In this document: positions 3,920-48,804 of the stretch, piece by piece
Numbering within the stretch: position 1 is the first letter of the stretch
Layout of the letters: each line of letters starts with the position of its first letter
NCBI GenBank assembly: GCA_022614695.1
Contig: JAKEIC010000077.1
Coordinates: forward strand, 1 to 57,437
DNA from: Planctomycetales bacterium
GTDB lineage: Bacteria; Planctomycetota; JAKEIC01
Length of the DNA: 57,437 nt
Direction: 5' to 3'
The notes under the pieces: model-generated
What the model saw: the letters and a program-made list of their open reading frames with translations, nothing else
Told to the model about the DNA's origin: nothing
The model's database searches: none
Made by a program: the position numbers and the translations under genes

Positions 3920-3923
3920 GCGG

Positions 3924-5405: not shown

Positions 5406-5435
5406 TTCCGGGCGTCGAGCCCTCCCAGGCAAGTA

Positions 5436-7850: not shown

Positions 7851-7875
7851 CCCCTGTGACCGTGCCGGCGAGAAT
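7847..7875 (+). promoter_or_regulatory. Candidate sigma70-type promoter for the IPT/TIG giant gene
   Basis: TTGACC (7847-7852), a 17-nt spacer, then GAGAAT (7870-7875), 32 nt upstream of ATG 7907. The -35 overlaps the K1 stop codon. Motif match only. Confidence 0.35.
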
Positions 7876-7906
7876 CCAGGTCCCGCTCCCGCCGAGGGGG
7901 TTCCGG

Positions 7907-15628: not shown

Positions 15629-16926
15629 TCCACCGCGAAGACGCGCATCGGGGCGGACTTCCCCCTCACCGGCATCGAGGGGAGCTCCCGGAGCCCCTTG
15701 TCCCCCGCGACGAGGGCGGCCGTGTCTGCCGAGGCGAGGATCGGGGCGCCCGCGAGCTTCGTCAGCCCCTCGAGACGGCTCGCGGTGTTCACGGCGTCGC
15801 CGATCACCGTGAACTCGAGGCGCCGACCCGGGGCGCCGATGTTGCCCGAGACGACGGATCCGGTGTGGATGCCGATCCCCATCCGGAGCGTGGGCAGTCC
15901 CCGGGCCTCCCGCCCCCGGTTGTGCGCCGCGAGAGCCGCGACCATCGCGCGGGCGCACCCGACGGCGGCCGCCGCCCCGTGGTCGTTCGCGTCGCCGCCC
16001 CCCGGCGACTCCACCCCGAAGACGACGAGCGCCCCGTCCCCCATGAACTTGTCGAGGACCCCTCCGTGGCGCTCCACCTCGCCATACATGGCCCCGTGGT
16101 AGGCGTTCAGCTGCTCGACGACCTCCGTCGGGGGAAGCCTCTCGCTCATCGCCGTGAACTCGCGGAGGTCGCTCGATAGGAGCGTCACGGTCCGGAGCTG
16201 TCCTCCGAGCGCGAGCGCCGCCTCGGGGTCGCCCTCGACGACGCGGCGGACCGCCGCCTCCGGGAGGTAGCGCCCGAGGAGCCTCACGCGGGCGTGGGTC
16301 TCGAGGGTCTTGCGCGCCTCGTTCGCCGAGAACCAGCCCACCACGCCCGCGATCCCGAGCAGCGAGGTGGCCACGAAGTGCGGGGCCCCGAACCGGATCG
16401 AGAACCAGTCGTACTGCCGGTGCCAGGAGAGGCACAGGACGAAGAGGAGCGCCGCCACGGCGCCCCCCAGGACGGCCGCGCGGTGGTGGTTCCGGATCGT
16501 GTTGATGAGCAGGACCGAGAGGAGCGCCGGCGCGCAGACCGTCCCGACGAACTGCTCGCCGTCGCGCCGGGCCTCCAGCGGCATCTCGATCGAGGACATG
16601 ACGAAGAAGATCCCGACGGAGCAGGAGAGGTCGAGGAGGACCGACCCGTAGACGACCGACGGCCGCGCGCCCACCCGGCGGACGAGCACGCGGAGCGCGA
16701 GGGCGAACCCGAAGACGGTCGAGAAATAGAGGGTCGGCACCCAGGTCGCGCCCTCCTGGAAGAAGAGGTTCACCGCGATCGAGACGGGGACGACGAGCCC
16801 GAAGGCGAGGAGCCGGTAGAACGCGATGGCGCGCTCGACGCGGTCCCGCGAGAGCCGCAGCGTCTGGTCTATCTCCCGCCGCGCCGTGCCGCCGCTGGCC
16901 ATGGGGCACCTCCCGCGCGAGAGCAT
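15625..16926 (-). CDS. Membrane-anchored class III adenylate/guanylate cyclase
   Basis: The N-terminal half has about six hydrophobic helices. The C-terminal half reads LLSSDLREFTAMSE...LDKFMGDGALVVFG...GIGIHTGSVVSGNIG...FTVIGDAVNTASRLEG, the class III cyclase signature. The stop codon shares a CTAG with the convergent IPT gene stop. Confidence 0.85.
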   Translation of the reverse strand: MLSRGRCPMASGGTARREIDQTLRLSRDRVERAIAFYRLLAFGLVVPVSIAVNLFFQEGATWVPTLYFSTVFGFALALRVLVRRVGARPSVVYGSVLLDLSCSVGIFFVMSSIEMPLEARRDGEQFVGTVCAPALLSVLLINTIRNHHRAAVLGGAVAALLFVLCLSWHRQYDWFSIRFGAPHFVATSLLGIAGVVGWFSANEARKTLETHARVRLLGRYLPEAAVRRVVEGDPEAALALGGQLRTVTLLSSDLREFTAMSERLPPTEVVEQLNAYHGAMYGEVERHGGVLDKFMGDGALVVFGVESPGGGDANDHGAAAAVGCARAMVAALAAHNRGREARGLPTLRMGIGIHTGSVVSGNIGAPGRRLEFTVIGDAVNTASRLEGLTKLAGAPILASADTAALVAGDKGLRELPSMPVRGKSAPMRVFAVD

Positions 16927-16972: not shown

Positions 16973-19942
16973 TCAGTCTCCCGCGCTCCGGCTCCTCTCT
17001 AGGAGAGCCTTCCAGCGCGGGTCGCCGTGCAGGGATCGCAGTTCGGGGACTTCAGCAAGAGCCGGGCGGACCTCCCGGCAGAGCTCGAGCGCCCTTCGCA
17101 GTTGCTCGAACGCCCGATCCACGAGCTGGGGGCGATCGCCGCCGGGCCCGCCGGCCGCCACGGCATAGCAGCGGGCGAGTGCCGAGTGAGCGACAACCCG
17201 CAGGGCTCGGACCGTCCGGAGGGCGAGCGGGCTCTCTCTCTCGGCGAGGGCGAGTACCCCCTCGAGGATGGCTCTGGCCTCCACGTGTGCGCCCTCGCGA
17301 GAGAGTCGAATGGCATCGAGTGCCCGGACCTTCCACCGGATGCGCCACCCGACCAGGCCTTCCCAACGCGGATCCTGGTTCAGGAAGGCCATCTCGGCGG
17401 AGGACCACCAGTCCGAAGGACCGCTCCTAGGGTCCGACCAGGTCACTGTCTCGAGCCACGCACCCGGGGTCCACCCGTAGTCGAGAGCCCGAGTCAATTC
17501 CGCCAAGGCCCTTTCCACCAGGACCACTCCCGGATCGGGGCGGGGGTCCACTGGGGCCACCCGGGTCCGCGGCGGTCCCTGAGCGCGCGCGCGTAGCCGG
17601 TGGAGCGCTGCGTGGGCCGCGATTAGCGGGTACGTCCCGATCCATCTCGCCTCGATGGATTGACTCTCGGCCGCTTGCACGGACTCCTCGAGGAGACGCT
17701 CCGCATCGGCAGTGTGGTCCTGCGCCGCCTCGCGCACCCCCTCCCAAGTCCGGTCCCGCCATGTGGCTTGACGGTTCAGCGCCTGCCAACGTGGCTCGAC
17801 CTCCAGACGCACGAACTCCGCGGCCTCCAACCGCCACTGCCATCCGAGAGCCACGGCCCGCTCCAGGTGGTCCAGCGCGGCCTCGACGACAGTGTCAGCC
17901 GACCCGTGAGGGCCACGTCTCGCGGGCCGACTCCCCGCGAGGGCCCGCGCGAGCCCGAAATGAGCGTCTCGGAACACCGCACGGCATTGAATGTCCCGGG
18001 AAGCCCCTGCCGCCTCGGCCTCCTGGAGCCCCGACTCGTACTCCCCGATCGCCACCTCGTAGGCGCACTCGTCCACTAAACGGCGCGCGCGCTCGAGCCG
18101 GCGGAGCCACGGAGCCCCGGCCTGCGCGGCCTCCCAGCTCGCGAGTCTCTCCTCCCACGTCCACTGCGACCCGAGCCCGTCGAGGCGCTCCTCGGGCCCG
18201 GCCCGGATGGCCAGCCTGATCGGGACCGCGATACCCTCTCGCGCGTCGGCGATGGCCCCCAGCCGGTCTCCCCGGGCGTTCCGGGCCAGGGCCCGGCCGA
18301 AGTACCAGCCGGGCCGCGGCGGCGATCCCCGATCCTGGGCGACCCGGATCAGCTCCGAGTACTCCCCGATCGCCCTGTCGTAGGCCGCTTCCGCGGCGCC
18401 GCCTCGGCGCGCGTCGACATCTCCCAGAGCGAGATGCACCCGCGCGCGAGCGTCCTGTACATCGAGCGTTTCCGGGACGGACCAGTAGGGCCCGGCTACG
18501 TGGAGGTCGCGGACCCCGGATCCCGCGCCAACTCGCATCCCATCCGTCCACGCCTGGAGCGCTTCCAGGTAGGGGCCCCGGGGGTCCTGCCCGCGCACAG
18601 TCCTCGCACGCGCCTCCCAGAGCAGGACCTCACCCAGGAGGATTCGCGCTCTCGCGGGACTCGGATCGAGCAAGACCAGCTCCTGGAGCTGGGTAATCGT
18701 TGGATCAAAGTTTGCGTAACCTCCGCTCCGGAGGCTCCGGCCGCCGCTCTCGATCTCACGGGGGGAGACTATCAGGCGAGCCCGCACGAGCTCTCCCAAG
18801 ACCTCCTGATGCTGTTCGGCCCGGTACCGGCCATAGCTCACGAGTGCGGCCGTCGCGACACCTCCGCAGGCCACGACCGCCCAAAGGACCGGATGCCGCG
18901 CGATGTGGCGGCGCGCCACCGACGCCCGCCGGGCGAGCACAGGCTCGCCCCGGAGGAACCTCGCCAGGTCCTCGGCCAGGGCCTCCCCGGTCGCGTACCG
19001 CCGCTCCGGGGACTTCTCCAGACACTTCCCCACGATTGTCTCGAGGTCCCACGGCACCCCGGGCGCCCGACGACGCAGAGGCGAGGGATCCCACGACACC
19101 ACCGCCGCCAGCACCGCCAGGGGCGTCTTCCCGTCGAACGGCACCCCGCCCGTCAAGCACTCGTACAGCACCACCCCGCACGACCAGATGTCTGCACGCC
19201 CGTCCACCACCTCGCTCCGCGCCTGCTCGGGGGACATGTAGTTCGGGGTCCCGAAAACCTGCCCGCTCCGCGAGAGGGTCGTCGAACCCTCCACGTCCCG
19301 CGCGAGCCCGAAGTCGGCGAGGTGAGGTTCCCCGCCCTGGTCGAGCAGGATGTTCCCCGGCTTCACGTCCCGGTGGATGACGCCGAGGGCGTGGGCGTGG
19401 GCGAGCGCACGGGCCACCGTCTCCACGATCCGCGCCGCCCGGTTGGGAGGGAGCGTGTCCTGATCCAGGAGCGCGGCGAGGCTCTCGCCCTCGACGAGAT
19501 CCTGCACGAGGTAGGCCATCCCCTCCGCCTCGCCGGCCGCGTGGACGGCGACGATGTTCGGGTGCCGCAGCCGAGCTGCGACGCGCCCCTCCCGGAGGAA
19601 CCGGGCGCGGCGATCCGCGGGAGCCCCCGCGGGGAGGACCTTGAGGGCGACCTCCCGGCCGAGGGACGGATCCCGGGCGCGGTAGACGACTCCCATCCCG
19701 CCGCGGCCGAGTTCCCCCGAGATCACGTAGGCGCCGAGCCGCTGCGGGGCGGAAGCCGGCGGCGGCGCGACGGAGAGGCCGAGCGAGTCCGAATTCGAGG
19801 GCGGTGGACCGCCGGAGACGTGCGTGACCGTGGGCGAGCCCGGGAGGCCGGGAATCGGCTCGGTGAGGTTCTCCCGGGGGGCCTCGGGAGGGGCCCCTCG
19901 GCTCCCGGGATCCAGGTTCTTGCGGTTCTTGTCCGGCCCCAC
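16973..19942 (-). CDS. K8: Ser/Thr protein kinase with a long helical-repeat C-terminal region (different family from K1-K7)
   Basis: Motifs GELGRGGMGVVYRARD, VALKVL, HRDVKPGNILLDQGGEPHLADFGLAR, GTPNYMSPEQ and a TM-like VLWAVVACGGVATAALV. About 600 aa follow with recurring ...DPRW.AL... helical motifs. The beta7-DFG spacing is canonical, with no palindromic insert. Confidence 0.85.
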   Translation of the reverse strand: MGPDKNRKNLDPGSRGAPPEAPRENLTEPIPGLPGSPTVTHVSGGPPPSNSDSLGLSVAPPPASAPQRLGAYVISGELGRGGMGVVYRARDPSLGREVALKVLPAGAPADRRARFLREGRVAARLRHPNIVAVHAAGEAEGMAYLVQDLVEGESLAALLDQDTLPPNRAARIVETVARALAHAHALGVIHRDVKPGNILLDQGGEPHLADFGLARDVEGSTTLSRSGQVFGTPNYMSPEQARSEVVDGRADIWSCGVVLYECLTGGVPFDGKTPLAVLAAVVSWDPSPLRRRAPGVPWDLETIVGKCLEKSPERRYATGEALAEDLARFLRGEPVLARRASVARRHIARHPVLWAVVACGGVATAALVSYGRYRAEQHQEVLGELVRARLIVSPREIESGGRSLRSGGYANFDPTITQLQELVLLDPSPARARILLGEVLLWEARARTVRGQDPRGPYLEALQAWTDGMRVGAGSGVRDLHVAGPYWSVPETLDVQDARARVHLALGDVDARRGGAAEAAYDRAIGEYSELIRVAQDRGSPPRPGWYFGRALARNARGDRLGAIADAREGIAVPIRLAIRAGPEERLDGLGSQWTWEERLASWEAAQAGAPWLRRLERARRLVDECAYEVAIGEYESGLQEAEAAGASRDIQCRAVFRDAHFGLARALAGSRPARRGPHGSADTVVEAALDHLERAVALGWQWRLEAAEFVRLEVEPRWQALNRQATWRDRTWEGVREAAQDHTADAERLLEESVQAAESQSIEARWIGTYPLIAAHAALHRLRARAQGPPRTRVAPVDPRPDPGVVLVERALAELTRALDYGWTPGAWLETVTWSDPRSGPSDWWSSAEMAFLNQDPRWEGLVGWRIRWKVRALDAIRLSREGAHVEARAILEGVLALAERESPLALRTVRALRVVAHSALARCYAVAAGGPGGDRPQLVDRAFEQLRRALELCREVRPALAEVPELRSLHGDPRWKALLERSRSAGD

Positions 19943-20071: not shown

Positions 20072-21385
20072 GTGGCGGGCGGAGGGCTCTTCCGGGCGAC
20101 AGGCTGCCTCGCGGCGCTCCTCGCCGCGAGTCCCGCCCGCTCGCAGGCTCCTCCCGCCGCCGCGAAGGTCCTCGCGATCCGCGACGCGACCGTGATCCCG
20201 GTTTCCGGGCCGATCCTCCCCCGGGCAACGGTCCTCGTCCGCGGCGGGAAGATCGCCGAGGTGGGGCCGAACGTCGCCGTGCCGCCCGGGGCCGAGGTCC
20301 ACGACGGGCGGGGGAAGTTCCTCACGCCCGGCGTGATAGACCCCCACTCGCACATGGGGGTCTACCCGTGGCCGGGGACGCCCGCGACGTCCGACGGGAA
20401 CGAGGCCTCGGCTCCCGTCACCGCCGAGGTCCGCGCGGCCGACTCGATCCACGTGGAGGACCCGGCCTTCGCGCGGGCCCGGGCGGGGGGCGTGACCACG
20501 GTCCAGATCCTCCCCGGGAGCGCGAACCTGATCGGGGGCGAGGCGGCGATCGTGAAGCTCCGGCCCGTGCCCTCGCTCGCCGGGATGCGCTTCGAGGGCG
20601 CCCCGCGCGGCTTGAAGATGGCCGTCGGCGAGAACCCGAAGCGCGTCTACGGCGGCAGGGGGAAGACCCCCTCGACTCGCATGGGGAACGCCGCCGTGAT
20701 GAGGCAGGCTTTCATCAAGGCCCGGGAGTACCTCACGAAGTGGGACCGCTACCGGGCGAAGCTCGAGGAGCACCGTCGGAAGCTCGCCGCGGGCGAGGAG
20801 AAGGCCGAGAAGGAGCCCGAGAAGCCTGAGACCGACCTCCAGCTCGAGACCCTCGCGGCCGTCCTCCGCGGGGAGGTCCGCGTGCATATCCACTGCTACC
20901 AGACCCACGACATCGAGTTCCTCTTCCGGCTCTCGGACGAGTTCGGCTTCAAGATCGCCTGCTTCCACCACGGCCTCGAGGCCTACAAGGTCGCCGACGA
21001 GATCGCCCGCCGCGAGATCGGCGTCACCACCTGGACCGACTGGTGGGGGTTCAAGATCGAGGCCTTCGACGGGATCCCCTACGCGTTCCCGATCCTCCTC
21101 CGGAAGGGGGTCCTCGCCTCGCTCCACTCGGACTCCTCGAGCGGCGTCCAGCGCCTCTACCACGAGGCGGCGAAGGCGGTCCGCTACGGGGTCTCGGAGG
21201 AGGACGCGTTCAAGCTCTTCACGCTGAACCCCGCGAAGCAGCTCGGGATCGAGGCGCGCGTCGGGACGATCGAGCCCGGGAAGGACGCCGACCTCGCCCT
21301 CTTCGACCGCCACCCGTTCGACATGTACGCGCGGGTGGAGAAGACGTTCATTGACGGCGTGCTCGTGTACGAGAGGGGGAAGTGA
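20072..21385 (+). CDS. Secreted amidohydrolase-family protein
   Basis: Signal-like N-terminus (GCLAALLAASPARSQA). It has GVIDPHSHMGVY, a metal-binding H-x-H, and VHIHCYQTHD, in an overall imidazolonepropionase/prolidase-like amidohydrolase layout. Confidence 0.75.
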   Translation: MAGGGLFRATGCLAALLAASPARSQAPPAAAKVLAIRDATVIPVSGPILPRATVLVRGGKIAEVGPNVAVPPGAEVHDGRGKFLTPGVIDPHSHMGVYPWPGTPATSDGNEASAPVTAEVRAADSIHVEDPAFARARAGGVTTVQILPGSANLIGGEAAIVKLRPVPSLAGMRFEGAPRGLKMAVGENPKRVYGGRGKTPSTRMGNAAVMRQAFIKAREYLTKWDRYRAKLEEHRRKLAAGEEKAEKEPEKPETDLQLETLAAVLRGEVRVHIHCYQTHDIEFLFRLSDEFGFKIACFHHGLEAYKVADEIARREIGVTTWTDWWGFKIEAFDGIPYAFPILLRKGVLASLHSDSSSGVQRLYHEAAKAVRYGVSEEDAFKLFTLNPAKQLGIEARVGTIEPGKDADLALFDRHPFDMYARVEKTFIDGVLVYERGK

Positions 21386-22710
21386 TGCCGCCCCTGCGCG
21401 TGCCCGTGCTCGTCCTCGTGCTCGTGCTCGGACGACCCGGGACGGAGCCCGCCGCGCTTGCCCAGGACCCCGTCCCGGCCGCCGTCGCCATCGTCGGTGG
21501 CACGGTCCACACGGCCGCCGGCGCCCCGATCCCGAACGGGACCGTCGTGATCCGGGACGGGAAGATCGAGGCCGTGGGTCCGGGGCTCGCGCCGCCCGCC
21601 GGCGCGCGCGTCGTCCGGGCCGACGGCTGCTGGGTGACCCCGGGGTTCACAGACTCGGGGACCTCGCTCGGGCTCGTGGAGATCGAGCTGGTGGAGGCGA
21701 GCCGGGACAGCCACGAGAAGGGGGACCCGATCCAGCCTCAGCTCCGGGCCCTCGACGCATTCCACCCCGCGAGCGTCGTGATCCCGGTCACGCGCGTGAA
21801 CGGGATCACGACGGCGCTCGTGGTCCCGGACCCGAGGAACGTGCTCTCCGGCCAGAGCATGCTCGTGCACCTCGACGGCGCGGAGCCCGCGCAATACCTC
21901 GTGAAGTCTCCCGTCGCGGTCCACGCGAACCTGGGGGAGTCCTCGCGCGGCGAGGGGGACAGCGCCCCGCGCACCCGGATGGGCGAGGTGGCGCTCCTCC
22001 GGAAGGCCCTCGTGGCGGCGAGGGACTACTCCGAGAAGCGCGGCCGCTACGAGCGGAAGTTCGAGGAGTACCGCCGGAAGGTGGCCGCCGGGGAGAAGCC
22101 CGATGGCGACGAGCCCGAGCCGCCCGCGCGGGACCTGAAGAACGACGCGCTCGTGCCGGTGCTCCGCGGCGAGATCCCCCTGGTCGTCCGCGCCCGCCGC
22201 GCCTCCGACCTCCTGCTCGGCCTCGAGATCGGGCGCGAGTTCGGCGTCCGCGTGGTCCTCGACGGCGCGACCGAGGCCTGGAAGGTGGCGGCAAGGATCG
22301 CGGAGGCGAAGGTCCCCGTGATCGTCGGCCCGATCACCGAGCAGCCCGAGGACCTCGAGGCGCTCGGCGCGGTCTACGAGAACGCGGCGAGGCTCCACGC
22401 GGCCGGCGTCACGTTCGCGATCAAGACGGCCGACGCCCACAACGTGCGGAACCTCCCGTACGAGGCGGGGACGGCCGTGACATACGGCCTCCCCTGGGAC
22501 GTCGCCTTCGCGGCCGTGACGCGCCGCCCCGCCGAGATCCTCGGTGCCGACGGCCACGGCACCCTCGAGCCCGGCAAGTGCGCCGACGTCGTCGTCTGGT
22601 CCGGCGACCCGTTCCAGCCGCGGAGCGTCCCGAAGGCGGTCTTCATCCGCGGCCGCGAGATCCCCCTCACGAACAAGCAGACGGAGCTGCGGGACAAGTT
22701 CGGGAAGTAG
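21385..22710 (+). CDS. Second amidohydrolase-family protein, translationally coupled to the first
   Basis: ATG 21385 overlaps the upstream TGA (tgATG), and a G-rich SD-like gagaggggga lies upstream. It has a signal-like MPPLRVPVLVLVLVLG and is paralogous to the preceding gene, but the H-x-H position reads FTDSGT. The track start GTG 21382 is equally possible. Confidence 0.7.
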   Translation: MPPLRVPVLVLVLVLGRPGTEPAALAQDPVPAAVAIVGGTVHTAAGAPIPNGTVVIRDGKIEAVGPGLAPPAGARVVRADGCWVTPGFTDSGTSLGLVEIELVEASRDSHEKGDPIQPQLRALDAFHPASVVIPVTRVNGITTALVVPDPRNVLSGQSMLVHLDGAEPAQYLVKSPVAVHANLGESSRGEGDSAPRTRMGEVALLRKALVAARDYSEKRGRYERKFEEYRRKVAAGEKPDGDEPEPPARDLKNDALVPVLRGEIPLVVRARRASDLLLGLEIGREFGVRVVLDGATEAWKVAARIAEAKVPVIVGPITEQPEDLEALGAVYENAARLHAAGVTFAIKTADAHNVRNLPYEAGTAVTYGLPWDVAFAAVTRRPAEILGADGHGTLEPGKCADVVVWSGDPFQPRSVPKAVFIRGREIPLTNKQTELRDKFGK

Positions 22711-22755: not shown

Positions 22756-24672
22756 GTGGACCCCGGGCAGCGGACCGTGGGCTGCTTCCTCGCCGATTTC
22801 GGCCTCGCCCGGTACGTCGCGACCGGCTCGAAGTACACGCGGACGGGCCAGGCGCTCGGGACTCCCGAGTACATGTCCCCCGAGCAGGCGGTCGGCGACC
22901 CGGACGCGCTCTCGCCGGCCACCGACGTGTGGGGGCTCGGGGCCGCTCTCCACGAGATGCTCGCCGGAAGTCCGCCGTTCGAGGGAGACACGCCCACCTT
23001 GATCGCGAAGATCCTCCTCGAGTCGCCGCCGCGCATCCGTCGCCTCCGGCCCGACGCGCCCCGCGCCGTGGACCGGATCCTGCGGGTCTGCCTCGGGAAG
23101 GACCCCGCGCGCCGGTACGCGAACGGCCGGTCGCTCGCCGAGGACCTCGAGCGAGTCCTGCGCGGCGAGTCCCCTCTCGCGCGCCCTCCCTCGACAAGCA
23201 CGCTCATGACGGTCGCGGCCGTCGCCGCGGTCGCTGCCGTGGCCGCGCTCCTGCTCGTCGGCCGGTCGCCCACGGGGTCGGGGGGATCGGGGGCCGAGGA
23301 CCTGCCCGATCCGGGGGTTGCGCGGGCCGCGCTGTCCGGGGCGGCGTCGCCCGAGGGCCTGGCGGTCCGGGCGCGGGCGCTCCGGGCCTCCGACCCGCAG
23401 GCGGCCGTCCACCTGCTCGGGGAGGCGCTGGCGAGGGAACCCCTGCGGCACGCGTGGCGGCTCGAGCGCGGACTCCTCCTCTGGTGCCTCGGCGACGGGG
23501 AGGCGGCGCGGGAGGAGTGGCGCCGCGTCCCTCCCGACACCCCCGAAGGAACCGAAGCAAGGCTCTACGGCGGGCTCGTGGGCGTGATCAGCGGACACGA
23601 GGTGCGGATCCGGTCCGACCCGGAGACCGTGGACCGGGCGATCCGCGACCTCGAGGCCGTGGCCTCCGGTACGGGTCCCGAGGCCGCCCTCGCGCGGGGA
23701 GCCCTCGCGACGGCGCGACGGGATTGGGGGGAGGCGCGCCAGGCCCTTCGGGACGCCCCCGGATGGCTGGCGGCGATGCTCCGGGCGTTCGTCGAGGGAA
23801 CGGACCCCGCGGGCGACGATCGCCTGGCGGCCCGGGAGTACGGGGTCGCGCTCGCGGAGGGCGTCCCGTTCGGCTGGGCGTACGTGAACCGGGCGTGCTG
23901 CCTCGAGACGACGGGAGACTACGCCGCCATGCGAGCCGAGGCCGAAGCGGCCGTCCGCCTGCTGCCGGACGTCCCCGAGGCGCACAACGTCCTCGGCCAT
24001 TGCATGCTCCGCCTCGGCGATCTCCGCGGGGCGATGGAGGCGCTCGACGAGGCGCTGCGGCTCCGGCCGGGATTCGCCAACGCCCTCTTCGCCCGCGCCG
24101 GGGTGTGGATCGCCCGGGGGGACACCGCCCAGGCGCTCGCGGACATGGATGAGGCGGTCGTTGCCGACCCCGCCGATCCCGCCGCCTGGTGTCGCCGGGG
24201 GTTCCTGCGGTCGCGCCTCGGGGACCCCGCCGGCGCCGAGGCGGACCAGGACGAGGCGTTGCGGCTCCGTCCGGCCTTCCCCGAGGCGTTGGTGAACCGC
24301 GGAGCCCTGCGCAGCGCGCGCGCGGACCACGGCGGCGCGCTCGCCGACCTCGACGAGTCGCTGCGGATCGAGCCCGACCACCCCGAGGCGCTCCTCAACC
24401 GTGGGATCGCGCGACGCGCGGCCGGGCAGGTCGAGGGCTCTCTCGACGACTTCGCCCGACTCGCCGGCCTGCGCCCGGTGGACCCCGAGGCCCACCTCGG
24501 CCTGGCGCTCGGACGCGAGCTCCGGGAAGAGTGGCGCGGGGCGGCCACGGCCTACGCCGAGGTGCTGCGCCTCGCGCCCGGACACCCGCAGGCCGAGCGG
24601 GTGAGGCGCTCCCTCGCCGAGTGCGAGGAGCGCGCGCGGACGGCGGCGGGGAGCGAGGGGCGCGGCCGTTGA
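22756..24672 (+). CDS. K2: N-lobe-less paralogue (kinase subdomains VII-XI only) - TM - juxtamembrane module - TPR array
   Basis: It starts VDPGQRTVGCFLADFGLARYVATGSKYTRTGQALGTPEYMSPEQA. No Gly-loop, VAxK Lys or HRD loop exists upstream; the gene is preceded by only 45 nt and then the amidohydrolase stop. It has a TM helix LMTVAAVAAVAAVAALLLVG, the conserved WRLERGLLLW...GWLAAMLRAFVEGTDPAGD...PFGWAY module, and TPRs up to the stop. Confidence 0.75.
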   Translation: MDPGQRTVGCFLADFGLARYVATGSKYTRTGQALGTPEYMSPEQAVGDPDALSPATDVWGLGAALHEMLAGSPPFEGDTPTLIAKILLESPPRIRRLRPDAPRAVDRILRVCLGKDPARRYANGRSLAEDLERVLRGESPLARPPSTSTLMTVAAVAAVAAVAALLLVGRSPTGSGGSGAEDLPDPGVARAALSGAASPEGLAVRARALRASDPQAAVHLLGEALAREPLRHAWRLERGLLLWCLGDGEAAREEWRRVPPDTPEGTEARLYGGLVGVISGHEVRIRSDPETVDRAIRDLEAVASGTGPEAALARGALATARRDWGEARQALRDAPGWLAAMLRAFVEGTDPAGDDRLAAREYGVALAEGVPFGWAYVNRACCLETTGDYAAMRAEAEAAVRLLPDVPEAHNVLGHCMLRLGDLRGAMEALDEALRLRPGFANALFARAGVWIARGDTAQALADMDEAVVADPADPAAWCRRGFLRSRLGDPAGAEADQDEALRLRPAFPEALVNRGALRSARADHGGALADLDESLRIEPDHPEALLNRGIARRAAGQVEGSLDDFARLAGLRPVDPEAHLGLALGRELREEWRGAATAYAEVLRLAPGHPQAERVRRSLAECEERARTAAGSEGRGR

Positions 24673-26654
24673 CCCCGCCCCCGAGCCGGGACGGCCCCTC
24701 CGGGGACCCGGGGCGCGGGGCGCCTCGCGCGTTCCTCGCCGACTTCGGCCTGGCGAAGTCCGTCTCCACCGGATCGAAGCTCACCCGCACCGGCCAGGCT
24801 CTCGGGACCCCGGAGTACATGTCGCCCGAGCAGGCCCGCGGCGAGATGGCGGAATTGACGCCGGCCGCGGACACCTGGGCCGTCGGGGCCCTGCTCTACG
24901 AGGCCGTCACGGGGCGGGTCCCCTTCGAGGGCCCGACGCCGGCCCAGGTGGTCCTGAAGGTCCTCCGCCACGAGCCGCCCCCGCTGCGCCGGCTCGCGCC
25001 GGGGGTCCCCGAGGCCCTCGAGGCGGTCGTCCGGGGTTGCCTCGGGAAGCGCGCCACCGACCGCTACCGGGACGGAGCGACCCTGCGCGACGACCTGGAC
25101 CGGCTCCTCGGTGGGGCGCGGCCGCTCTCGCGCGCCCGGAGACGGCAGAGGCCCGTGCTCCTCGCGGCGTGCGGGGCCGGTGCGGTCGCCCTCGTCGCGG
25201 CGCTCGTGCCGTCCGGGACCCCGACCGAGCCCGAACCGGTCGTCGGGCCCGCGCCGGCCGCCGCCCTGGCGGCGCGCGCCCGCGCCGTGGAGACCGGGGA
25301 CCCCGCGGCGGCGGCGAGGCTCCTCGACGAAGCCCTCGCCGCCGAACCCGGCCACCCGTCCCGCCACGAGTGGCGGCTCCGGCGGGGGCTCCTCCTCTGG
25401 GCCCTCGGGCGGGGGGCGGAGGCCCGCGAGGCGTGGGACCGGGTCCCCGACGACGCGGGCGAGGCCCCGCGGGCCCGGCTCTACTCGGCGCTCGAGCCGA
25501 TGTTCCGCCTGGCAGGGGAGGAGGCAGGGCCGGCGCTCGAGCGGGTCGCCCGCGGGACGGGCCCGGAAGCGGGCCTCGCGCGGGGGGCGCTCGCGACGGT
25601 CCGCCGGGACTGGGGCGCGGCCCGGGCCGCCCTGGGCGGTTTGCCCGGCTGGGAGGCGGCGCTCCTTCGCGCGTCGGTGGAGTGCCTCGACGCGGCGGGC
25701 GGAGATCCGGCGCTCGCGGTCCGCGATTCGGACGCGGCGCTCGCGACGGGCATCCGGTTCGGATGGGCGTTGAGCAACCGGAGCGCCGCCCGCCGGGAGC
25801 TGGGAGACTTCCGCGGCGCCCTGCTCGACGCGGAGGAGGCACTGCGGCTCTCCCCCGGGTTCCTCCTGGCGCTCCTCGGCCGCGCCGAGGCCCGACTTGC
25901 GCTGGGCGACGGGCGGGGGGCGCTCGCCGACTGCGAGGAGGTCCTGCGGCGCGACCCCGGCTACGCCAAGGGGCTCACCGGGCGAGCGGACACCCATCGG
26001 GCCCTGGGCGACCACGCCCGCGCGATTGCCGACTACGACGCGGCGCTGCGGCTCCAGCCCGGCGATCCGGTCGCGCTCACGAACCGGGGGGTCAGCCGCG
26101 AGCGGCTCGGGGACCTCGAAGGCGCGATCGCCGACCACGAGGCGGCGCTCCGCGCCCGGCCGAGCATGTTCGAGGCGCTCCTGAACCGGGGCAACGCCCG
26201 GTTCCTCCTCCGCGACGGCGAGCGCGCCCTCGAGGACTTCGGCGCCGCGATCCGGGCCCGGCCGCGCCGCGTCGAGCCGTACTTCAACCGCGGGAACGTC
26301 CGCACGTTCCTCGGAGACCACGCCGGGGCCGCGGAGGACTACACGGCCGCGATCGAGAGGGACCCGGGGATGGTCGCCGCCTACCTCTCCCGCGGCAACG
26401 CCCGCGTCCGGCTCGGCGACCACCGGGGGGCGTCGGAGGACTTCGCCGCGACGATCCGCCTCGACCCCTCGGACGCGGCCGTCCACGGGAACCTCGGATC
26501 GAGCCTCTACGAGCTGGGGGACCTCGCCGGCGCCGCGGCCCACTACGAGGAGTTCCTCCGGCGCTTGCCCGATCACCGCTCCGCCCGCCACCTCCGTGGG
26601 AGGCTCGAGGAGATCCGCCGGAGGCTGGCGGGCGGGGAGCCGGGCGGCCGTTAG
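24669..26654 (+). CDS. K3: N-lobe-less paralogue - TM - juxtamembrane module - TPR array
   Basis: TTG 24669 overlaps the K2 stop TGA 24670-24672. It begins LTPPPSRDGPSGDPGRGAPRAFLADFGLAKSVSTGSKLTRTGQALGTPEYMSPEQARGE. The TM helix is PVLLAACGAGAVALVAALV, followed by about seven TPRs. The track ORF start at 24189 is an out-of-frame overlap with K2. Confidence 0.7.
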   Translation: MTPPPSRDGPSGDPGRGAPRAFLADFGLAKSVSTGSKLTRTGQALGTPEYMSPEQARGEMAELTPAADTWAVGALLYEAVTGRVPFEGPTPAQVVLKVLRHEPPPLRRLAPGVPEALEAVVRGCLGKRATDRYRDGATLRDDLDRLLGGARPLSRARRRQRPVLLAACGAGAVALVAALVPSGTPTEPEPVVGPAPAAALAARARAVETGDPAAAARLLDEALAAEPGHPSRHEWRLRRGLLLWALGRGAEAREAWDRVPDDAGEAPRARLYSALEPMFRLAGEEAGPALERVARGTGPEAGLARGALATVRRDWGAARAALGGLPGWEAALLRASVECLDAAGGDPALAVRDSDAALATGIRFGWALSNRSAARRELGDFRGALLDAEEALRLSPGFLLALLGRAEARLALGDGRGALADCEEVLRRDPGYAKGLTGRADTHRALGDHARAIADYDAALRLQPGDPVALTNRGVSRERLGDLEGAIADHEAALRARPSMFEALLNRGNARFLLRDGERALEDFGAAIRARPRRVEPYFNRGNVRTFLGDHAGAAEDYTAAIERDPGMVAAYLSRGNARVRLGDHRGASEDFAATIRLDPSDAAVHGNLGSSLYELGDLAGAAAHYEEFLRRLPDHRSARHLRGRLEEIRRRLAGGEPGGR

Positions 26655-26665
26655 GATTCCCTCCC

Positions 26666-28996
26666 GTGGAGGGAGACCCCGCGACCCGGATCGGTCCCTA
26701 CGAGATCGGGGAGGAGCTCGGCCGGGGCGGGTTCGGCTCGGTCTACCGGGCGCGGGACGCCTCGACCGGCCGGGAGGTCGCGCTCAAGGTCTTGCGCGAG
26801 GATCCGGGGGACGGCGCACTCCCGGCCCGCCGGTTCCTGCGCGAGACGTCGCTCGTGCGCGAGCTCGATCACCCGGCGATCCTGAAGGTCCTCGACGCGT
26901 CCCGGGAGGACGAGAAGCCCCTCTGGGTGGCGTTCGAGCTCGTGGAGGGCGTTCCCCTCTGGAAGCTCCTGGCCGAGGAGCCCCTCGAGTGGCGCCGGGC
27001 GGCCGAGATCGCCCGCGACGTCGCCGCCGCCCTCGGACACGCCCACGCCAAGGGGATCCTGCACAGGGACGTGAAGCCGGGCAACATCCTCGTCGGCCGC
27101 AAGTGGGGTGACGAGGATGTTGCGGACGGGGCCCCCGGGAACGCGCGAAGCGCGTTCCTCACCGACTTCGGCCTCGCCCGCGTCACTGACACGCGGTCGC
27201 GCCTCACGGTGACGGGGATGGCGATCGGGACGCCGGAGTACATGTCGCCCGAGCAGGCGCGCGGAGAGACGACGTCTCTCAGCCCGGCGACCGACGTCTG
27301 GGCGGTCGGCGTGGTCCTCTACGAGATGCTCGCGGGGCGACTGCCGTTCGAGGGGGACTCCCCCGAGTCGGTGATCGAGAAGGTCGTCCTGCGGGAGCCG
27401 GTGGGCCTCCGGAAGCTCCGGTCCGGCGTGCCGGCGGGGCTCGACCGCGTCGTGCGCGCCTGTCTCGCGAAGCGGCGGGAGTCGCGCTACCCGGACGGGA
27501 CGGCTCTCCAGGAGGACTTGGACCGGGTGCTCCGGGGTGAGAACGCACGCGCCTCGCCGCCCCACCGATGGCGAGGCCCCGCGATCGCGGCGGGGATGGC
27601 GGCGCTCCTCGCCGGCGCGGTCGCCCTGCGTCCCGGCTCCCCGCGCTCGGCGTCGGCGCCCGCCGAGGCCCGGTCCGCCCCGTCCGCCGCGGAGGCCCTG
27701 GCGGGGAGGGCGGCCCGGCTCAGGGGCTCCGACCCCGTCGAAGCCGCCCGGCTCCTCCAGCAGGCGTTGGCGGAGGATCTCGGTCACCCCGACGCCGACC
27801 GCTGGCGGCTGGAACGCGGCCTCCTCCTCTGGTCGGTCGGGTACGGGGACGAGGCGCAAGGGGAGTGGCTGCGGATCGCCCCCGGCTCGCCGCTCGCGCC
27901 GCCCGCGCGGCTCTACCGCGGTCTCGAGGCGATCCTGCGGATCCGCTCGAGCGCGGAGCGGCGCCAGGCGGGGACCGCCGAGCTGGAGGCCGCGGCTTCC
28001 GGCGAGGGCCGCGAGGGGAGACTCGCGCGCGGGACGCTGGCCGCGTTCGGCCACCGTTGGGACGAGGCGCGGCGTGCCCTGCGCGACGAGACCGGATGGG
28101 AGGCCGCCCTGCTCCGAGGCTACGTCGAGGGACTCGATCCGGCCGGCGACCGCGCGGCCGTCGTTCGGGAGCTCGGGGAGGCCCTCGCGGCCGGGCTCCC
28201 CTTCTCGTGGGCCCACAACAACCGGGGCGCCGCGCTCCTCGAGCTCGGGGACGCGCCGGGCGCGCTCGCGGAATTCGACGCGGCCCTCCGGCTCCGGCCC
28301 GACGATCCCGGGGCGCTCCTCAACCGGGGCATCGCGCGCCTCGGGGCCGGAGATCCGCGCGGGGCCCGCGACGACCTGACGACTCTGCTGCGGGACTCGC
28401 CGGGCGACTCCGCCGCCTCCCACCAGCGAGGCATCGCCCGGATGAGGCTCGGCGACACGGTCGGGGCCCTCGCGGACTTCACCGCGTCGCTCGAGGGCCG
28501 GCCGCGGGACCCGGACACGCGGTACAACCGGGGGAACGCCCACGTGGCCCTGGGGGACCTGGCGGCGGCCGAGAGGGACTACACGATCGCGATCGAGGCG
28601 CGACCTGACTTCCACGGGGCGCTCACGAACCGCGGGAACGTCCGCTGGAACCAGGGGAACGAGTCGGGAGCCCTCGAGGACTACGACGCCGCGCTCCGGA
28701 TCGCGCCGGGTGAGTCACGGGCGCTCAACAACCGGGGGAGGCTGCACCTCCGGCACGGCCGTCTCGAGGCCGCCGACGCGGACTTGCGAGCCGCTCGCAA
28801 GTCGGACCCGTCGTTCCCCGATCCGCTCTACAACCTCGGGATCGTCCACCAGAAGCGGCGAGAGTGGGAGGAGGCCATCCAGCTCTTCTCGGAGTTCCTT
28901 CGCATGGCTCCGACCCATGCCGCCGCCGAGGAGGCCCGCCTCCGGCGGACCGGCTGCGAGCAGGGCGCGCAGGAGGAATCCGGGCGCCCGCGCTGA
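26666..28996 (+). CDS. K4: full-length receptor Ser/Thr kinase - TM - juxtamembrane module - TPR array
   Basis: GTG 26666 lies 11 nt after the K3 stop. The sequence reads VEGDPATRIGPYEIGEELGRGGFGSVYRARD, VALKVL, HRDVKPGNILVGRKWGDEDVADGAPGNARSAFLTDFGLAR, GTPEYMSPEQ. The TM helix is GPAIAAGMAALLAGAVAL, followed by TPRs. The track ORF start at 25037 overlaps K3 out of frame. Confidence 0.85.
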   Translation: MEGDPATRIGPYEIGEELGRGGFGSVYRARDASTGREVALKVLREDPGDGALPARRFLRETSLVRELDHPAILKVLDASREDEKPLWVAFELVEGVPLWKLLAEEPLEWRRAAEIARDVAAALGHAHAKGILHRDVKPGNILVGRKWGDEDVADGAPGNARSAFLTDFGLARVTDTRSRLTVTGMAIGTPEYMSPEQARGETTSLSPATDVWAVGVVLYEMLAGRLPFEGDSPESVIEKVVLREPVGLRKLRSGVPAGLDRVVRACLAKRRESRYPDGTALQEDLDRVLRGENARASPPHRWRGPAIAAGMAALLAGAVALRPGSPRSASAPAEARSAPSAAEALAGRAARLRGSDPVEAARLLQQALAEDLGHPDADRWRLERGLLLWSVGYGDEAQGEWLRIAPGSPLAPPARLYRGLEAILRIRSSAERRQAGTAELEAAASGEGREGRLARGTLAAFGHRWDEARRALRDETGWEAALLRGYVEGLDPAGDRAAVVRELGEALAAGLPFSWAHNNRGAALLELGDAPGALAEFDAALRLRPDDPGALLNRGIARLGAGDPRGARDDLTTLLRDSPGDSAASHQRGIARMRLGDTVGALADFTASLEGRPRDPDTRYNRGNAHVALGDLAAAERDYTIAIEARPDFHGALTNRGNVRWNQGNESGALEDYDAALRIAPGESRALNNRGRLHLRHGRLEAADADLRAARKSDPSFPDPLYNLGIVHQKRREWEEAIQLFSEFLRMAPTHAAAEEARLRRTGCEQGAQEESGRPR
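27080..27159. repeat. Double-hairpin module in K4 (copy 2 of 3)
   Basis: Hairpin 1 is GCAACATCCTCGTC (27081-27094) paired with GACGAGGATGTTGC (27110-27123), a 14-bp stem. Hairpin 2 is GGAACGCGC-GAA-GCGCGTTCC (27138-27158). I count 6 differences from the 80-nt K6 copy. Confidence 0.9.
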
Positions 28997-29006
28997 GGGG
29001 TATCTC

Positions 29007-30863
29007 GTGAACTGCTCCCTCACCGACTTCGGCCTCGCGAAGTTCGCGGCGACCGGCTCCCGGCTCACGCGCACCGGCCAGGCGCTCGGGACCCCCGCCT
29101 ACATGTCGCCCGAGCAGGCGCGCGGCGAGCTCCTCGCCCTCTCGCCCGCGACGGACGTCTGGTCGCTCGGGTGCGTCCTCTACGAGATGCTCGCGGGCCG
29201 CCCCCCCTTTGAGGGAGGGACGCCGGCCGAGACCGTCGGGAAGGTCCTCTTCTCGGAACCCCCGGCGCTCCGGCGACTCCGCCCGGACGTCCCCGCGAGC
29301 CTGGAGCGGATCGTGCGGGTGGCGCTCGCGAAGGGCGTCCGGGCGCGGTATCCCGATGCCGCGGCGTTCCGCGACGACCTCGATCGCGTGACGCGAGGCG
29401 AGAGCCCGCGAGCGCGGCCGCCCGGCCCGCGACGCCTTGGGACCACACTCGCGCTGGGGGCCGCCGCCGCCGCCGGGGCTATCGGCCTCTCGTGGCACTT
29501 CCGCCCGCCGGAGGCGCCTCCGCCGCCCGCCGCCCCGCCGGCGAGGTCCCGGGCGGAGGCGCTCGCGGACCGTGCCCGCGGGCTCCGGACCTCCGACCCT
29601 CGGGAGGCGGCCCGCCTTCTCGGGGAAGCGCTCCGGGAGGACCCCGGCCGCGCGGGGTGGCGGCTCGAGCGGGGGCTCCTCCTCTGGGCGCTCGGCGAGA
29701 GCCGCGTGGCTCGCGAGGAGTGGGGCCGGGTGTGCGAAGTCCCCGGCGGCTGCCCGGAGTCCGAGAGGGCCCATCTCTACCGCGCGCTCGAGGTGGTCTT
29801 CGACATGGACCTCGGGGCGCGGAGGATCGAGGAGGCGCTGCCCGACATCGAGGCGGTCCTCGCCGCCGACGGATCGTGCGCGGGGCTCGCGAGGGGGGCC
29901 ATCGCGGCCGTCTGGGGGCACGGGCCGGAGGCGCTCGAGGAGCTCCGGGAGCAGCGAGGCTGGGAGGCGGCGCTGCTGCGGGGCTACGTCGAGGGGGACG
30001 CCGAACGTCATCCCGGAGGCGACCCGGCCCGCGCGGTGCGGGAGTTCACCGAGGCGCTCGCGGCCGGCCTTCCCTTCGCGTGGGCCTACCTCGACCGAGG
30101 CGTCTCGCGCCACCGGCTGGGCGACTTCCCGGGCGCGATCCGGGACTGCGACGCGGCCCTGCGGGTGCGCCCGGCGTGGCACGTGGCCCTGGCCAACCGG
30201 GGCGCGGCGCGCCTCTCCCTCGGGGACACCCCGCGGGCCCTCGAGGACGTGGAGGCCGCGCTGCGACTCCGGCCGGACTACCCGGATGGCCTCCTCGGCC
30301 GCGCGAGCGTCCGCGCGGCGCTGGGGGACCTCCCCGGCGCGCTGGAGGACGCGGAGGCCTCCCTGCGTCTCCAGCCCCAGTCCGCCCTGGGCCTGACGCA
30401 CCGGGGCGAGCTCCGCGGGCGGCTCGGCGACGCGCGGGGCGCCCGCGAGGACCTGGACTCCGCCCTCCGGCTCCGCCCCGAGATGCCCGAGGCGCTCGCC
30501 TTCCGGGGCAAGCTGCGGGGGGAGCTCGGCGACTTCTCCGGGGCCCTCGACGATCTCGACGCCGCGATCCGGCTCCGGCCCGGGGTGCCGAACTTCCACG
30601 TGGTCCGGGCGGCCGCGCGCGAGTCGCTGGGCCGGCTGGAGGAGGCGGTGCTCGACTGCGACGCGGCCGTCCGGCTCAAGCCCGACTACGTCGAGGCGCT
30701 CGCGCAGCGCGCGCGGGCGCGGATCAGCCTCGGAAACCCGGAGGGGGCCCTCGCCGACTGCGGGGAGGCCCTGCGGCTCCGTCCGGGATACGCGCCGGCC
30801 CTTGAGTTCGAGGCGAGGGCCCGGGCCGAGCTGGCGGAACGGGGCCCCCGAGGCGGGCGGTAG
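29007..30863 (+). CDS. K5: N-lobe-less paralogue - TM - juxtamembrane module - TPR array
   Basis: GTG 29007 lies 10 nt after the K4 stop. It begins VNCSLTDFGLAKFAATGSRLTRTGQALGTPAYMSPEQARGE. The TM helix is LGTTLALGAAAAAGAIGLSW, followed by about six TPRs. Confidence 0.7.
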   Translation: MNCSLTDFGLAKFAATGSRLTRTGQALGTPAYMSPEQARGELLALSPATDVWSLGCVLYEMLAGRPPFEGGTPAETVGKVLFSEPPALRRLRPDVPASLERIVRVALAKGVRARYPDAAAFRDDLDRVTRGESPRARPPGPRRLGTTLALGAAAAAGAIGLSWHFRPPEAPPPPAAPPARSRAEALADRARGLRTSDPREAARLLGEALREDPGRAGWRLERGLLLWALGESRVAREEWGRVCEVPGGCPESERAHLYRALEVVFDMDLGARRIEEALPDIEAVLAADGSCAGLARGAIAAVWGHGPEALEELREQRGWEAALLRGYVEGDAERHPGGDPARAVREFTEALAAGLPFAWAYLDRGVSRHRLGDFPGAIRDCDAALRVRPAWHVALANRGAARLSLGDTPRALEDVEAALRLRPDYPDGLLGRASVRAALGDLPGALEDAEASLRLQPQSALGLTHRGELRGRLGDARGAREDLDSALRLRPEMPEALAFRGKLRGELGDFSGALDDLDAAIRLRPGVPNFHVVRAAARESLGRLEEAVLDCDAAVRLKPDYVEALAQRARARISLGNPEGALADCGEALRLRPGYAPALEFEARARAELAERGPRGGR

Positions 30864-30869
30864 GGCGAC

Positions 30870-31745
30870 CTACCTCCCGTAGATCACCCAGGCGCAGAGG
30901 CCGATCCACAGGAGGACGCTCCCGAGGAGCGTCGGATCCCGGAGCAGCGTCCGGCCGGGGGTCTCCCCGGCGCCCCGCCGGAAGCCGAGCCAGGCGTACC
31001 TTCCGATCCCTGCGGCGACGGGGAGGACGGTCCACCCGAGCGCGCGGGTCCCGAACCGGGCGACCGTGTCGGGGGCGACCGTGTAGAACGCGTACGCCGC
31101 GAGAGCGGCGGCCCCCGTCGCCGCGACGGCTGCGTCGAGGAGCCTCCGCGGGTAGAGGGCCAGCACCGCCCGGGCCTCCGCCCCGAGGGCCCGCTGCTCG
31201 GCCCGGCGCTTGGCCGTCGCGAGGAACAACGCGAGAAGGGTGCCGCACAGCACGATCCAGCGCGACGGCTCGCAGGGGACGGCCGCCGCGCCGGCCAGGA
31301 TCCGGAGGAGGAACCCCCCGGCGACGGCGGCCACGTCCAGGACCGGGATGCGCCTGAGGACGAGCGTGTAGGCGGCCGAGAGCGCGAGATAGCCCGCGCC
31401 GAAGGCGGCCACCGCCCATCCGGGGCCGAGGGCCAGGGCCAGTCCGGCGAGGACGAGCGCGCAGGAGGCGAAGACCGCCGCGCCTACCGGCAGGTCGCCG
31501 GAGGCCACGGGCCGGACGCGGCGCGCCGGGTGCCGGCGATCCTCCGCGGCGTCCCGCACGTCGTTCGCCAGGTAGACGCCCGCGGCGAGGAGCGAGAACG
31601 CGGCGGCCGCCGCCAGCGACCGGCCGGCGGCGCCGGCGTCCCCCAAGGACCGGGAAAAAAGTACTGGCATGAGGACGGCGGCATTCTTGACAAGGTCTCC
31701 CGGTCGGGTTCCCCGGACGGTCGCAAGCGCCATGCCCCAAGGCAT
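30870..31745 (-). CDS. UbiA-family prenyltransferase, decaprenyl-phosphate phosphoribosyltransferase-like
   Basis: It has LVKNAAVLMPVLFS and YLANDVRDAAEDRRHPARRVRPVASG (an NDxxDxxxD-type motif followed by RP[IV]ASG) and is polytopic and hydrophobic throughout. Confidence 0.75.
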   Translation of the reverse strand: MPWGMALATVRGTRPGDLVKNAAVLMPVLFSRSLGDAGAAGRSLAAAAAFSLLAAGVYLANDVRDAAEDRRHPARRVRPVASGDLPVGAAVFASCALVLAGLALALGPGWAVAAFGAGYLALSAAYTLVLRRIPVLDVAAVAGGFLLRILAGAAAVPCEPSRWIVLCGTLLALFLATAKRRAEQRALGAEARAVLALYPRRLLDAAVAATGAAALAAYAFYTVAPDTVARFGTRALGWTVLPVAAGIGRYAWLGFRRGAGETPGRTLLRDPTLLGSVLLWIGLCAWVIYGR

Positions 31746-44601: not shown

Positions 44602-44613
44602 GAGCTCGATACC

Positions 44614-48770: not shown

Positions 48771-48800
48771 TTGACTTGTGCATTCGCCGTCTGCTACGGT
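48771..48800 (+). promoter_or_regulatory. Candidate promoter giving a leaderless K9 transcript
   Basis: TTGACT (48771-48776), an 18-nt spacer, then TACGGT (48795-48800). ATG 48805 lies 4 nt downstream of the -10. Motif match only. Confidence 0.3.
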
Positions 48801-48804
48801 GCCC

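Follow-up and report, generated by a model that had tools for sequence, protein, structure and literature searches.

Can a receptor whose kinase domain is reduced to its rear half still take part in catalysis? The question is posed by a 57,437-nt stretch of DNA from a Planctomycetales bacterium (contig JAKEIC010000077.1; here called the window, ~75% GC), which encodes seven receptor-kinase/tetratricopeptide repeat (TPR) paralogs named K1–K7. Four of these form the array of interest, K2-K3-K4-K5, in which K4 is a full-length kinase and K2, K3 and K5 begin shortly before the DFG motif. We find that K2, K3 and K5 are intact and under purifying selection, and that a large truncated receptor family in this planctomycete counts them among its old and strongly divergent members. 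The window's own genome also encodes the missing front half of the kinase domain as a stand-alone gene. The array comprises the following elements:

22756–24672, + strand: K2, truncated, 638 amino acids; GTG start with an alternative GTG at 22777; Pkinase profile positions 139–253 only, plus TPRs
22786–23181, + strand: kinase C-half remnant of K2, containing strand β8, DFG, the activation segment with its TxT motif, APE and helices αF to αI (PknB alignment)
23194–23256, + strand: single transmembrane helix of K2, residues 147–167 (AlphaFold2 helix; Ala/Val/Leu-rich stretch)
23311–24660, + strand: ectodomain of K2, in which a family-specific helical module leads into a TPR superhelix (Pfam TPR, AlphaFold2, Foldseek)
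24669–26654, + strand: K3, truncated, 661 amino acids; TTG start; remnant at ~24735–25133
26666–28996, + strand: K4, full-length kinase–transmembrane–TPR protein, 776 amino acids; Pkinase profile positions 1–252; kinase domain at ~26699–27553
27095–27151, + strand: insert GRKWGDEDVADGAPGNARS of K4 between β7 (NILV) and β8 (FLTDFG), the loop where the truncated genes begin
29007–30863, + strand: K5, truncated, 618 amino acids; GTG start; remnant at ~29016–29417

Domain searches and alignment to a characterized kinase define what the three truncated proteins contain. The Pfam Pkinase match in K2, K3 and K5 spans profile positions 138/139 to ~253 only, compared with 1–252 in K4, and truncated genes cover the NCBIfam PknB model from 148/149 to 277. 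Residues 11–142 of K2 align with M. tuberculosis PknB chain positions 156–287, a segment that opens with the strand immediately preceding DFG and closes where the kinase domain ends, placing a TRT sequence of K2 opposite the TQT of the PknB activation loop. DFG, the activation segment, APE, the αF Asp and the subdomain XI Arg are present in K2, K3 and K5, and all four genes of the array carry TPR arrays detected by Pfam. Missing from the three truncated proteins are the Gly-loop, the VAIK Lys, helix C and its Glu, the hinge, helices αD and αE, and the HRDxKxxN catalytic loop; K4 has the N-lobe features and an HRDVKPGN catalytic loop. Because the ATP-binding lobe and the HRD loop are both missing, K2, K3 and K5 cannot phosphorylate anything alone. 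An earlier reading of this DNA from its letters only (the original prediction) had described K2, K3 and K5 as long open reading frames with the kinase back half, the transmembrane helix and the TPRs, lacking the entire N-half beside a full-length K4 and cut at a point that is not a classical domain boundary, and each of these descriptions is confirmed.

The missing half is not concealed nearby in the window. We found no N-lobe or HRD coding sequence 5′ of K2, K3 or K5 in any frame, and a tblastn search with the N-terminal part of K4 detected N-lobe coding sequence in the window's six full-length kinases and nowhere else; a further weak match at 52517–52654 (− strand) was rejected as its translation is not kinase-like. 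An AlphaFold2 model of K2 has a mean predicted local distance difference test (pLDDT) score of 86.8, with a confident transmembrane helix, values of 95–98 in the ectodomain and ~70–93 from αF to αI. Residues 1–40, which include DFG and the activation loop, score below 50 and are thus predicted to be disordered when the protein is alone. Foldseek comparison with this model returned only TPR superhelices (OGT and consensus-TPR proteins).

The array itself is well supported as a genomic structure. A second public assembly, GCA_973348535.1, contains the same 8.3 kb at 99.96% identity without gaps and yields identical gene calls of 638, 661, 776 and 618 amino acids, making an assembly collapse or frameshift artifact unlikely, and a plot of GC content at third codon positions agrees with the K2–K5 reading frames. 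The genes are packed as originally described, with a TTGA start/stop overlap between K2 and K3, an 11-nt gap between K3 and K4, and a 10-nt gap between K4 and K5.

We searched with the K2 protein and recovered homologs of 40–48% identity, nearly all from Planctomycetales metagenome-assembled genomes (MAGs), and examined the 104 best. About 80 of the 104 are truncated and have no HRD motif, and ~24 are full length. The original prediction saw in the array three independent local truncations; the abundance of homologs truncated in the same way shows instead an old, diverged family. Its placement of the starts exactly at DFG also needs correction, as the starts do lie near the motif but fall anywhere from 5 to 52 residues (median ~14) ahead of the DFG Asp in [FL][LT][AT]DFGLA, always 5′ of strand β8. 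Every member keeps β8 and none begins after it, except for three gene calls that start at a downstream ATG. The family total is approximate because one apparent truncated member, P0024, owes its shortness to a contig end that interrupts a full-length gene. The same contig-edge artifact accounts for the sole strong sister pair of a truncated and a full-length protein, P0024 and P0003 (73% identity), which we therefore set aside. A neighbor-joining tree of 115 members is star-like, with truncated and full-length proteins interspersed on branches that resolve neither their order nor the number of truncation events. Scanning contigs with the family alignment returned generic patterns (MSPEQARG, TRTG[QE]ALGT) that match ordinary kinases of many phyla and are uninformative about lineage.

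Many of these genes appear to coexist in one genome. The accessions of ten members that we sampled, one of them the N-half gene introduced later, fall within the block MCI0340069–MCI0343219, which points to one annotated MAG; that MAG is the window's organism or its twin assembly GCA_973348535.1, and dozens of truncated members thus appear to reside in a single genome. Their arrangement varies. At locus L001 of the twin assembly, four truncated genes follow one another 9 nt apart without an N-half in the vicinity, and solitary truncated genes stand beside divergently transcribed neighbors at L002 and L087 of the same assembly and at L086 of a related assembly, GCA_040961615.1. Many truncated genes are solitary in this way, with no kinase gene within 10 kb, and the solitary copies have 50–360 nt of upstream spacer. 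Each truncated copy is a complete open reading frame with a start codon of its own, and at the 14 truncated genes checked in all frames we found no N-half directly 5′.

Some leader sequences record how the truncated genes may have arisen. In P0030, P0048, P0050 and P0089, a vestige of the ancestral N-terminus (MR.GPYE..) is fused to the β7/β8 turn, for example with MRTGPYE... joined to ...GRPHLADFG. This pattern indicates that the vestige-bearing members derive from full-length genes by in-frame internal deletion and not from duplication of an already split gene. K2 belongs to a different set, whose leaders look like the last part of the long loop that full-length forms carry at this position. 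GenBank names P0011, P0030, P0041, P0068 and others 'tetratricopeptide repeat-containing serine/threonine-protein kinase' despite the missing ATP-binding lobe and catalytic loop.

We next asked whether selection acts on the kinase remnant. Within the window, synonymous sites of the paralogs are saturated, and the best 90-nt window reaches only 76–84% identity across all 21 pairs, leaving no sign of recent duplication or gene conversion. Ratios of nonsynonymous to synonymous differences (pN/pS) between paralogs are saturated too and only weakly informative, so ortholog pairs were used to estimate the ratio of nonsynonymous to synonymous substitution rates (dN/dS). Assembly GCA_040961615.1 contains an orthologous array with a partial K3 ortholog, a full-length K4 ortholog, a K5 ortholog that is still truncated, and the UbiA gene that also closes the array in the window. 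The K5 remnant compared with its L088 ortholog has a dN/dS of 0.26 (dS 0.81), closely matching K4 and its L088 ortholog (0.27 in the C-terminal part and 0.22 in the N-terminal part). Remnant identity is likewise similar between pairs of truncated members (65%) and pairs of full-length members (64%), and their TPR ectodomains have diverged equally (42%). The earlier suggestion of selection on the protein is thus upheld, with dN/dS of 0.26–0.37 and a constraint on truncated members equal to that on intact ones; none of the refuting outcomes that the prediction had named came about, since the K5 ortholog is truncated, no dN/dS value lies near 1, and no hidden catalytic core emerged. In the K5 ortholog itself (P0095, L088:3876–5522), a mid-ectodomain stretch is unalignable and looks frameshifted (GHGGGGPRGAPRAGGLGG...), which may be an assembly error or local decay.

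The remaining half of the active site is itself strongly conserved. Among the 84 truncated members that cover the region, counted with a filter that required a D-x-G match and was failed only by top hits starting 3′ of the motif, no substitution (84 of 84) occurs at the three DFG residues, at the leading Thr of TxT, or at the P+1 Thr, the αF Asp and the subdomain XI Arg. Among the same proteins, 83 of 84 retain the APE Glu and 80 of 84 the second Thr of the PknB-type TxT, the two C-spine positions of αF are mostly hydrophobic, and αG and the activation loop are highly conserved. In intact kinases, several of these residues bind Mg-ATP or hold the catalytic loop. Their retention in proteins that have no such loop implies a partner that supplies it, and the truncated proteins must work through a partner.

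A candidate for that partner came from a search with the N-terminal part of K4. The window's own genome encodes, at locus L003, a 167-amino-acid protein (P0121, accession MCI0340424.1) in which the Gly-loop, VALK, helix C and HRDVKPGNILIGRKV are intact and a Pro/Ala-rich tail leads to the stop codon. P0121 includes HRDVKPGN and β7 and ends within the β7/β8 loop, where the truncated genes begin, and its coverage of PknB-model positions 9–142 complements the 148–277 of the truncated genes. At L003 the gene is followed by a TfoX_N gene, a typical truncated gene and another truncated gene; in detail (L003:10001–12882), a TAG ends the N-half, a TfoX_N gene of 111 amino acids has been inserted, and the C-half follows with its own ATG. 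At the orthologous locus (L085:2228–3115; N-half P0122), an in-frame TAG ends the N-half and the C-half resumes in the same frame 33 nt on. The TAG occupies the homologous nucleotide position at both loci and is therefore older than their divergence. The P0121/P0122 pair has a dN/dS of 0.17 (dS 0.34), and the C-half at these loci has a dN/dS of 0.37. An N-half gene is present in the other assembly that holds truncated genes as well. Thus both halves exist in one genome as separate intact genes cut at the same point, and both are under purifying selection (0.17 for the N-half and 0.26–0.37 for C-halves), so the missing half could come as a separate protein, an option absent from the original prediction.

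Two further N-half sequences were recovered. P0125, a second stand-alone N-half from another metagenome (L084:4518–5826), has no C-half downstream; its tail contains tandem TAAEPPV-like repeats, and it lies between a STAS-like open reading frame on the 5′ side and an unannotated 212-amino-acid Cys-rich one on the 3′ side. In P0123, from an 832-nt ENA contig, the N-half reading frame resumes past the loop in another frame (..LRDLGLAKSV..), through either a real frameshift or a sequencing error.

The point of division coincides with a variable loop in full-length members. The β7/β8 loop has 14 residues in K4 and 65 residues, rich in Ser, Glu, Arg and Ala, in the K4 ortholog (L088:1399–3879), even as its flanks are 80–85% identical, and in other full-length paralogs the same loop has ~20–76 residues. 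This loop is an indel hot spot.

Together, these observations lead us to favor, tentatively and at somewhat less than even odds, the reading that K2/K3/K5-type receptors represent one side of a natural split kinase, C-halves to which an N-half is supplied in trans. In the split-kinase mechanism we propose, the β7/β8 loop would be a permissive hinge, as the variable inserts of 14–76 residues in full-length paralogs suggest. The soluble P0121 N-half would dock on the C-half of a truncated receptor, pairing β7 with β8, seating the catalytic loop on αF and rebuilding the active site; a less likely donor would be the N-half of a full-length paralog such as K4. Assembly, perhaps through ligand-induced clustering, would then allow TxT autophosphorylation and downstream signaling. 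Many sensors with different TPR ectodomains could in this manner share one or few catalytic N-halves, and we hold with slightly less confidence the stronger form of this idea, in which dozens of sensors carrying a C-half would be activated by one shared, separately encoded docking N-half. The tight packing of K2-K3-K4-K5 fits co-translation of cooperating subunits. We prefer the split kinase because no other reading accounts at once for a half active site that does not vary, for a boundary that so sharply spares β8 and for an N-half gene that has been maintained.

Several points weigh against this preference. We know of no natural kinase split inside the catalytic core, and the prior for one is accordingly low. 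For its dozens of C-halves, this genome yielded a single stand-alone N-half gene. The vestigial N-termini trace their bearers to full-length genes and not to a duplicated split gene. At L085, no canonical start codon lies between the TAG and DFG, and the C-half there may be produced only through read-through. Finally, the conservation of TxT and αG fits a pure substrate role equally well.

This last point leads to the principal alternative, a possible but less probable one, in which the truncated proteins are trans-phosphorylated co-receptors or scaffolds. A full-length partner such as K4, engaged through the TPRs, the transmembrane helix or αG, would phosphorylate TxT, and the phosphorylated loop would recruit downstream proteins or tune the partner with no catalytic role for the truncated protein itself. 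Such a mechanism is established for Hanks kinases in the front-to-front trans-phosphorylation of PknB, and the alignment of TxT opposite the PknB TQT, the near-complete retention of both Thr residues and the strong conservation of αG and the activation loop are all as it would predict. The truncated proteins also share the ectodomain architecture of their kinase-active paralogs, to which their ectodomains are homologous, and the translational coupling of K2, K3 and K5 with intact K4 in an operon-like array suggests co-expression. Yet many family members are solitary, with no kinase gene within 10 kb, and a substrate role leaves unexplained why DFG, the P+1 Thr and the αF Asp never vary, why every member retains β8 but nothing upstream, and why a stand-alone N-half gene is kept.

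We consider it unlikely that the truncated receptors are decoys or dominant-negative proteins, which would bind the same ligands as active paralogs or heterodimerize with them to damp signaling and would use the remnant only as a dimerization or folding module. Kinase-less decoys occur in eukaryotes, as exemplified by BAMBI and truncated Trk isoforms, and the common ectodomain family and the excess of truncated over full-length members fit such a role. A module needed only for dimerization would not, however, require 100% conservation of catalytic residues over ~84 paralogs, nor a constraint on the remnant equal to that of active kinases.

Two readings offered by the original prediction fare poorly, and we regard both as very improbable. 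In one, the truncated genes are promoterless silent cassettes that gene conversion would attach to an expressed N-lobe, as happens in pilE/pilS or vls variation, an idea suggested by head-to-tail copies with tiny gaps and a common 5′ boundary. Against it, every copy forms a complete reading frame and has a start codon to itself, solitary copies neighbor divergent genes and have upstream spacers, no 90-nt tract exceeds 84% identity, synonymous sites are saturated, synonymous codons within FLxDFGLA differ between copies, and the orthologous array is stable between two genomes. In the other, the genes are decaying pseudogenes or relics of truncating duplications, which would account for the missing catalytic half and for the scrambled mid-ectodomain of P0095. 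The reading frames remain intact at 618–661 amino acids in a 75% GC genome, dN/dS is 0.26–0.37 with equal constraint on truncated and full-length members, K5 is truncated yet intact across species, and the family numbers ~80 members, all of which argue against decay. Least probable of all is an assembly or gene-calling artifact, for which the MAG source and the contig-cut P0024 give some grounds, since the gapless match in a second assembly, the truncated orthologous locus and the absence of an upstream N-half at 14 truncated genes speak against it.

To place these proteins among described systems, we compared them with the nearest known architectures. Our literature search found no description of a bacterial kinase family that lacks the N-lobe or of any half-kinase family defined by deletion, in agreement with the original prediction, which knew of no described system with this architecture. 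PknB-type and TPR-bearing Hanks receptor kinases have the same order of cytoplasmic kinase sequence, one transmembrane helix and an extracytoplasmic sensor, and the remnant aligns with PknB including TxT; K4, K1, K6 and K7 are ordinary members of this group, whereas K2, K3 and K5 have nothing before β8. An atlas of >300,000 bacterial Ser/Thr kinases describes seven pseudokinase families (bioRxiv 10.1101/2025.01.12.632604), and these families, CP1, DYD, ActPs1-3, DLHK and GLW, are all full bilobal domains with substituted catalytic residues (bioRxiv 10.1101/2025.01.12.632604). Like bacterial pseudokinases, the truncated receptors are kinase-derived, catalytically incompetent alone and conserved as a family. 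Unlike them, K2, K3 and K5 have lost half the domain, and with it the VAIK Lys and HRD Asp, by deletion, and the catalytic residues that remain are invariant.

Other systems divide kinase signaling in different ways. Bacterial tyrosine kinases (BY-kinases) can be fused, as in Wzc, or split, as in CapA/CapB, so that one signaling enzyme is made as one or two polypeptides. That division falls between a transmembrane activator and an intact catalytic domain of unrelated fold, whereas here it passes through the catalytic core. Plant receptor-like proteins acting with SOBIR1/BAK1, and BAMBI, are kinase-less co-receptors or decoys. These resemble the truncated receptors in that many kinase-less sensor ectodomains depend on few kinase-competent partners, but they contain no kinase sequence at all, while here half an active site is under strong selection. 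The KIND domain of animals is a whole kinase C-lobe that has lost the catalytic motifs and serves as an interaction module. The remnant begins later than KIND, at β8 and not αD, and keeps DFG and catalytic motifs, and we found no Pfam KIND match at E ≤ 0.01. KIND does provide an example of a kinase C-lobe piece that stands alone and is reused without an N-lobe (PMC2064798).

The closest parallel to the proposed mechanism is artificial. In engineered ligand-gated split kinases the cut lies near DFG, the N-terminal fragment carries the catalytic loop, the C-terminal fragment carries the activation loop and αF to αI, and activity returns when the fragments are brought together. Those systems rely on an added dimerizer, whereas here the genes are natural, the cut falls just before β8/DFG, and assembly of the halves is a proposal. 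The engineered cut at residues 393/394 of Lyn presumably lies a few residues after DFG. A Lyn kinase analog divided into two parts at 393/394 has been made (PMC6168510, citing Camacho-Soto 2014).

The protein kinase core is usually regarded as one indivisible folding unit, and yet this lineage keeps ~50 back-half receptors whose remaining catalytic residues are invariant, together with a separate front-half gene. If the two halves assemble, they would represent the first natural counterpart of engineered split kinases and a new bacterial wiring scheme in which a single catalytic module serves many sensors. Without assembly, the truncated receptors would still constitute a large unrecognized class of pseudokinase receptors in bacteria, one set apart by deletion and not by substitution. 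Such proteins are named by annotation pipelines "TPR repeat protein" or, wrongly, "serine/threonine-protein kinase", and kinome surveys that discard partial domains will miss half-kinase receptors.

The remaining paralogs and the genes bordering the array are listed below:

20072–21385 and 21382–22710 (span 20072–22710), + strand: two amidohydrolase genes (Pfam Amidohydro_1/3)
30870–31745, − strand: UbiA-family prenyltransferase, convergent, closing the array (Pfam UbiA)
5406–7850, + strand: K1, full-length paralog (tblastn, sequence reading)
42394–44601 and 44650–46938 (span 42394–46938), + strand: K6 and K7, tandem full-length paralogs (tblastn; Pfam for K7; N-termini of P0027 and P0043)

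The amidohydrolase genes lie directly 5′ of K2 on the same strand, 45 nt away, and are probably the start of the K2 transcription unit; they leave no space for a kinase N-half 5′ of K2. On the other side, the UbiA neighbor is also present at L088 and L089. K1 has no ATG, GTG or TTG codon 5′ of its Gly-loop (window 5403–5450), and its frame continues straight from the TGA of a 499-amino-acid open reading frame (3906–5405; no Pfam match), a sequence arrangement that points to read-through, to loss of the start codon or to initiation at a non-canonical codon. Kinase genes of this family repeatedly adjoin giant repeat proteins, both in the window (2–3919 and 7853–15625, an FG-GAP protein and a 2591-amino-acid protein with 26 IPT/TIG domains) and at L002 and L003 (TIG/FG-GAP/Kelch giants). 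Two adenylate/guanylate cyclase genes, at 15625–16926 (− strand) and 51201–52343 (− strand), each adjoin an unrelated full-length Ser/Thr kinase gene, at 16973–19942 (− strand) and 48778–50016 (+ strand).

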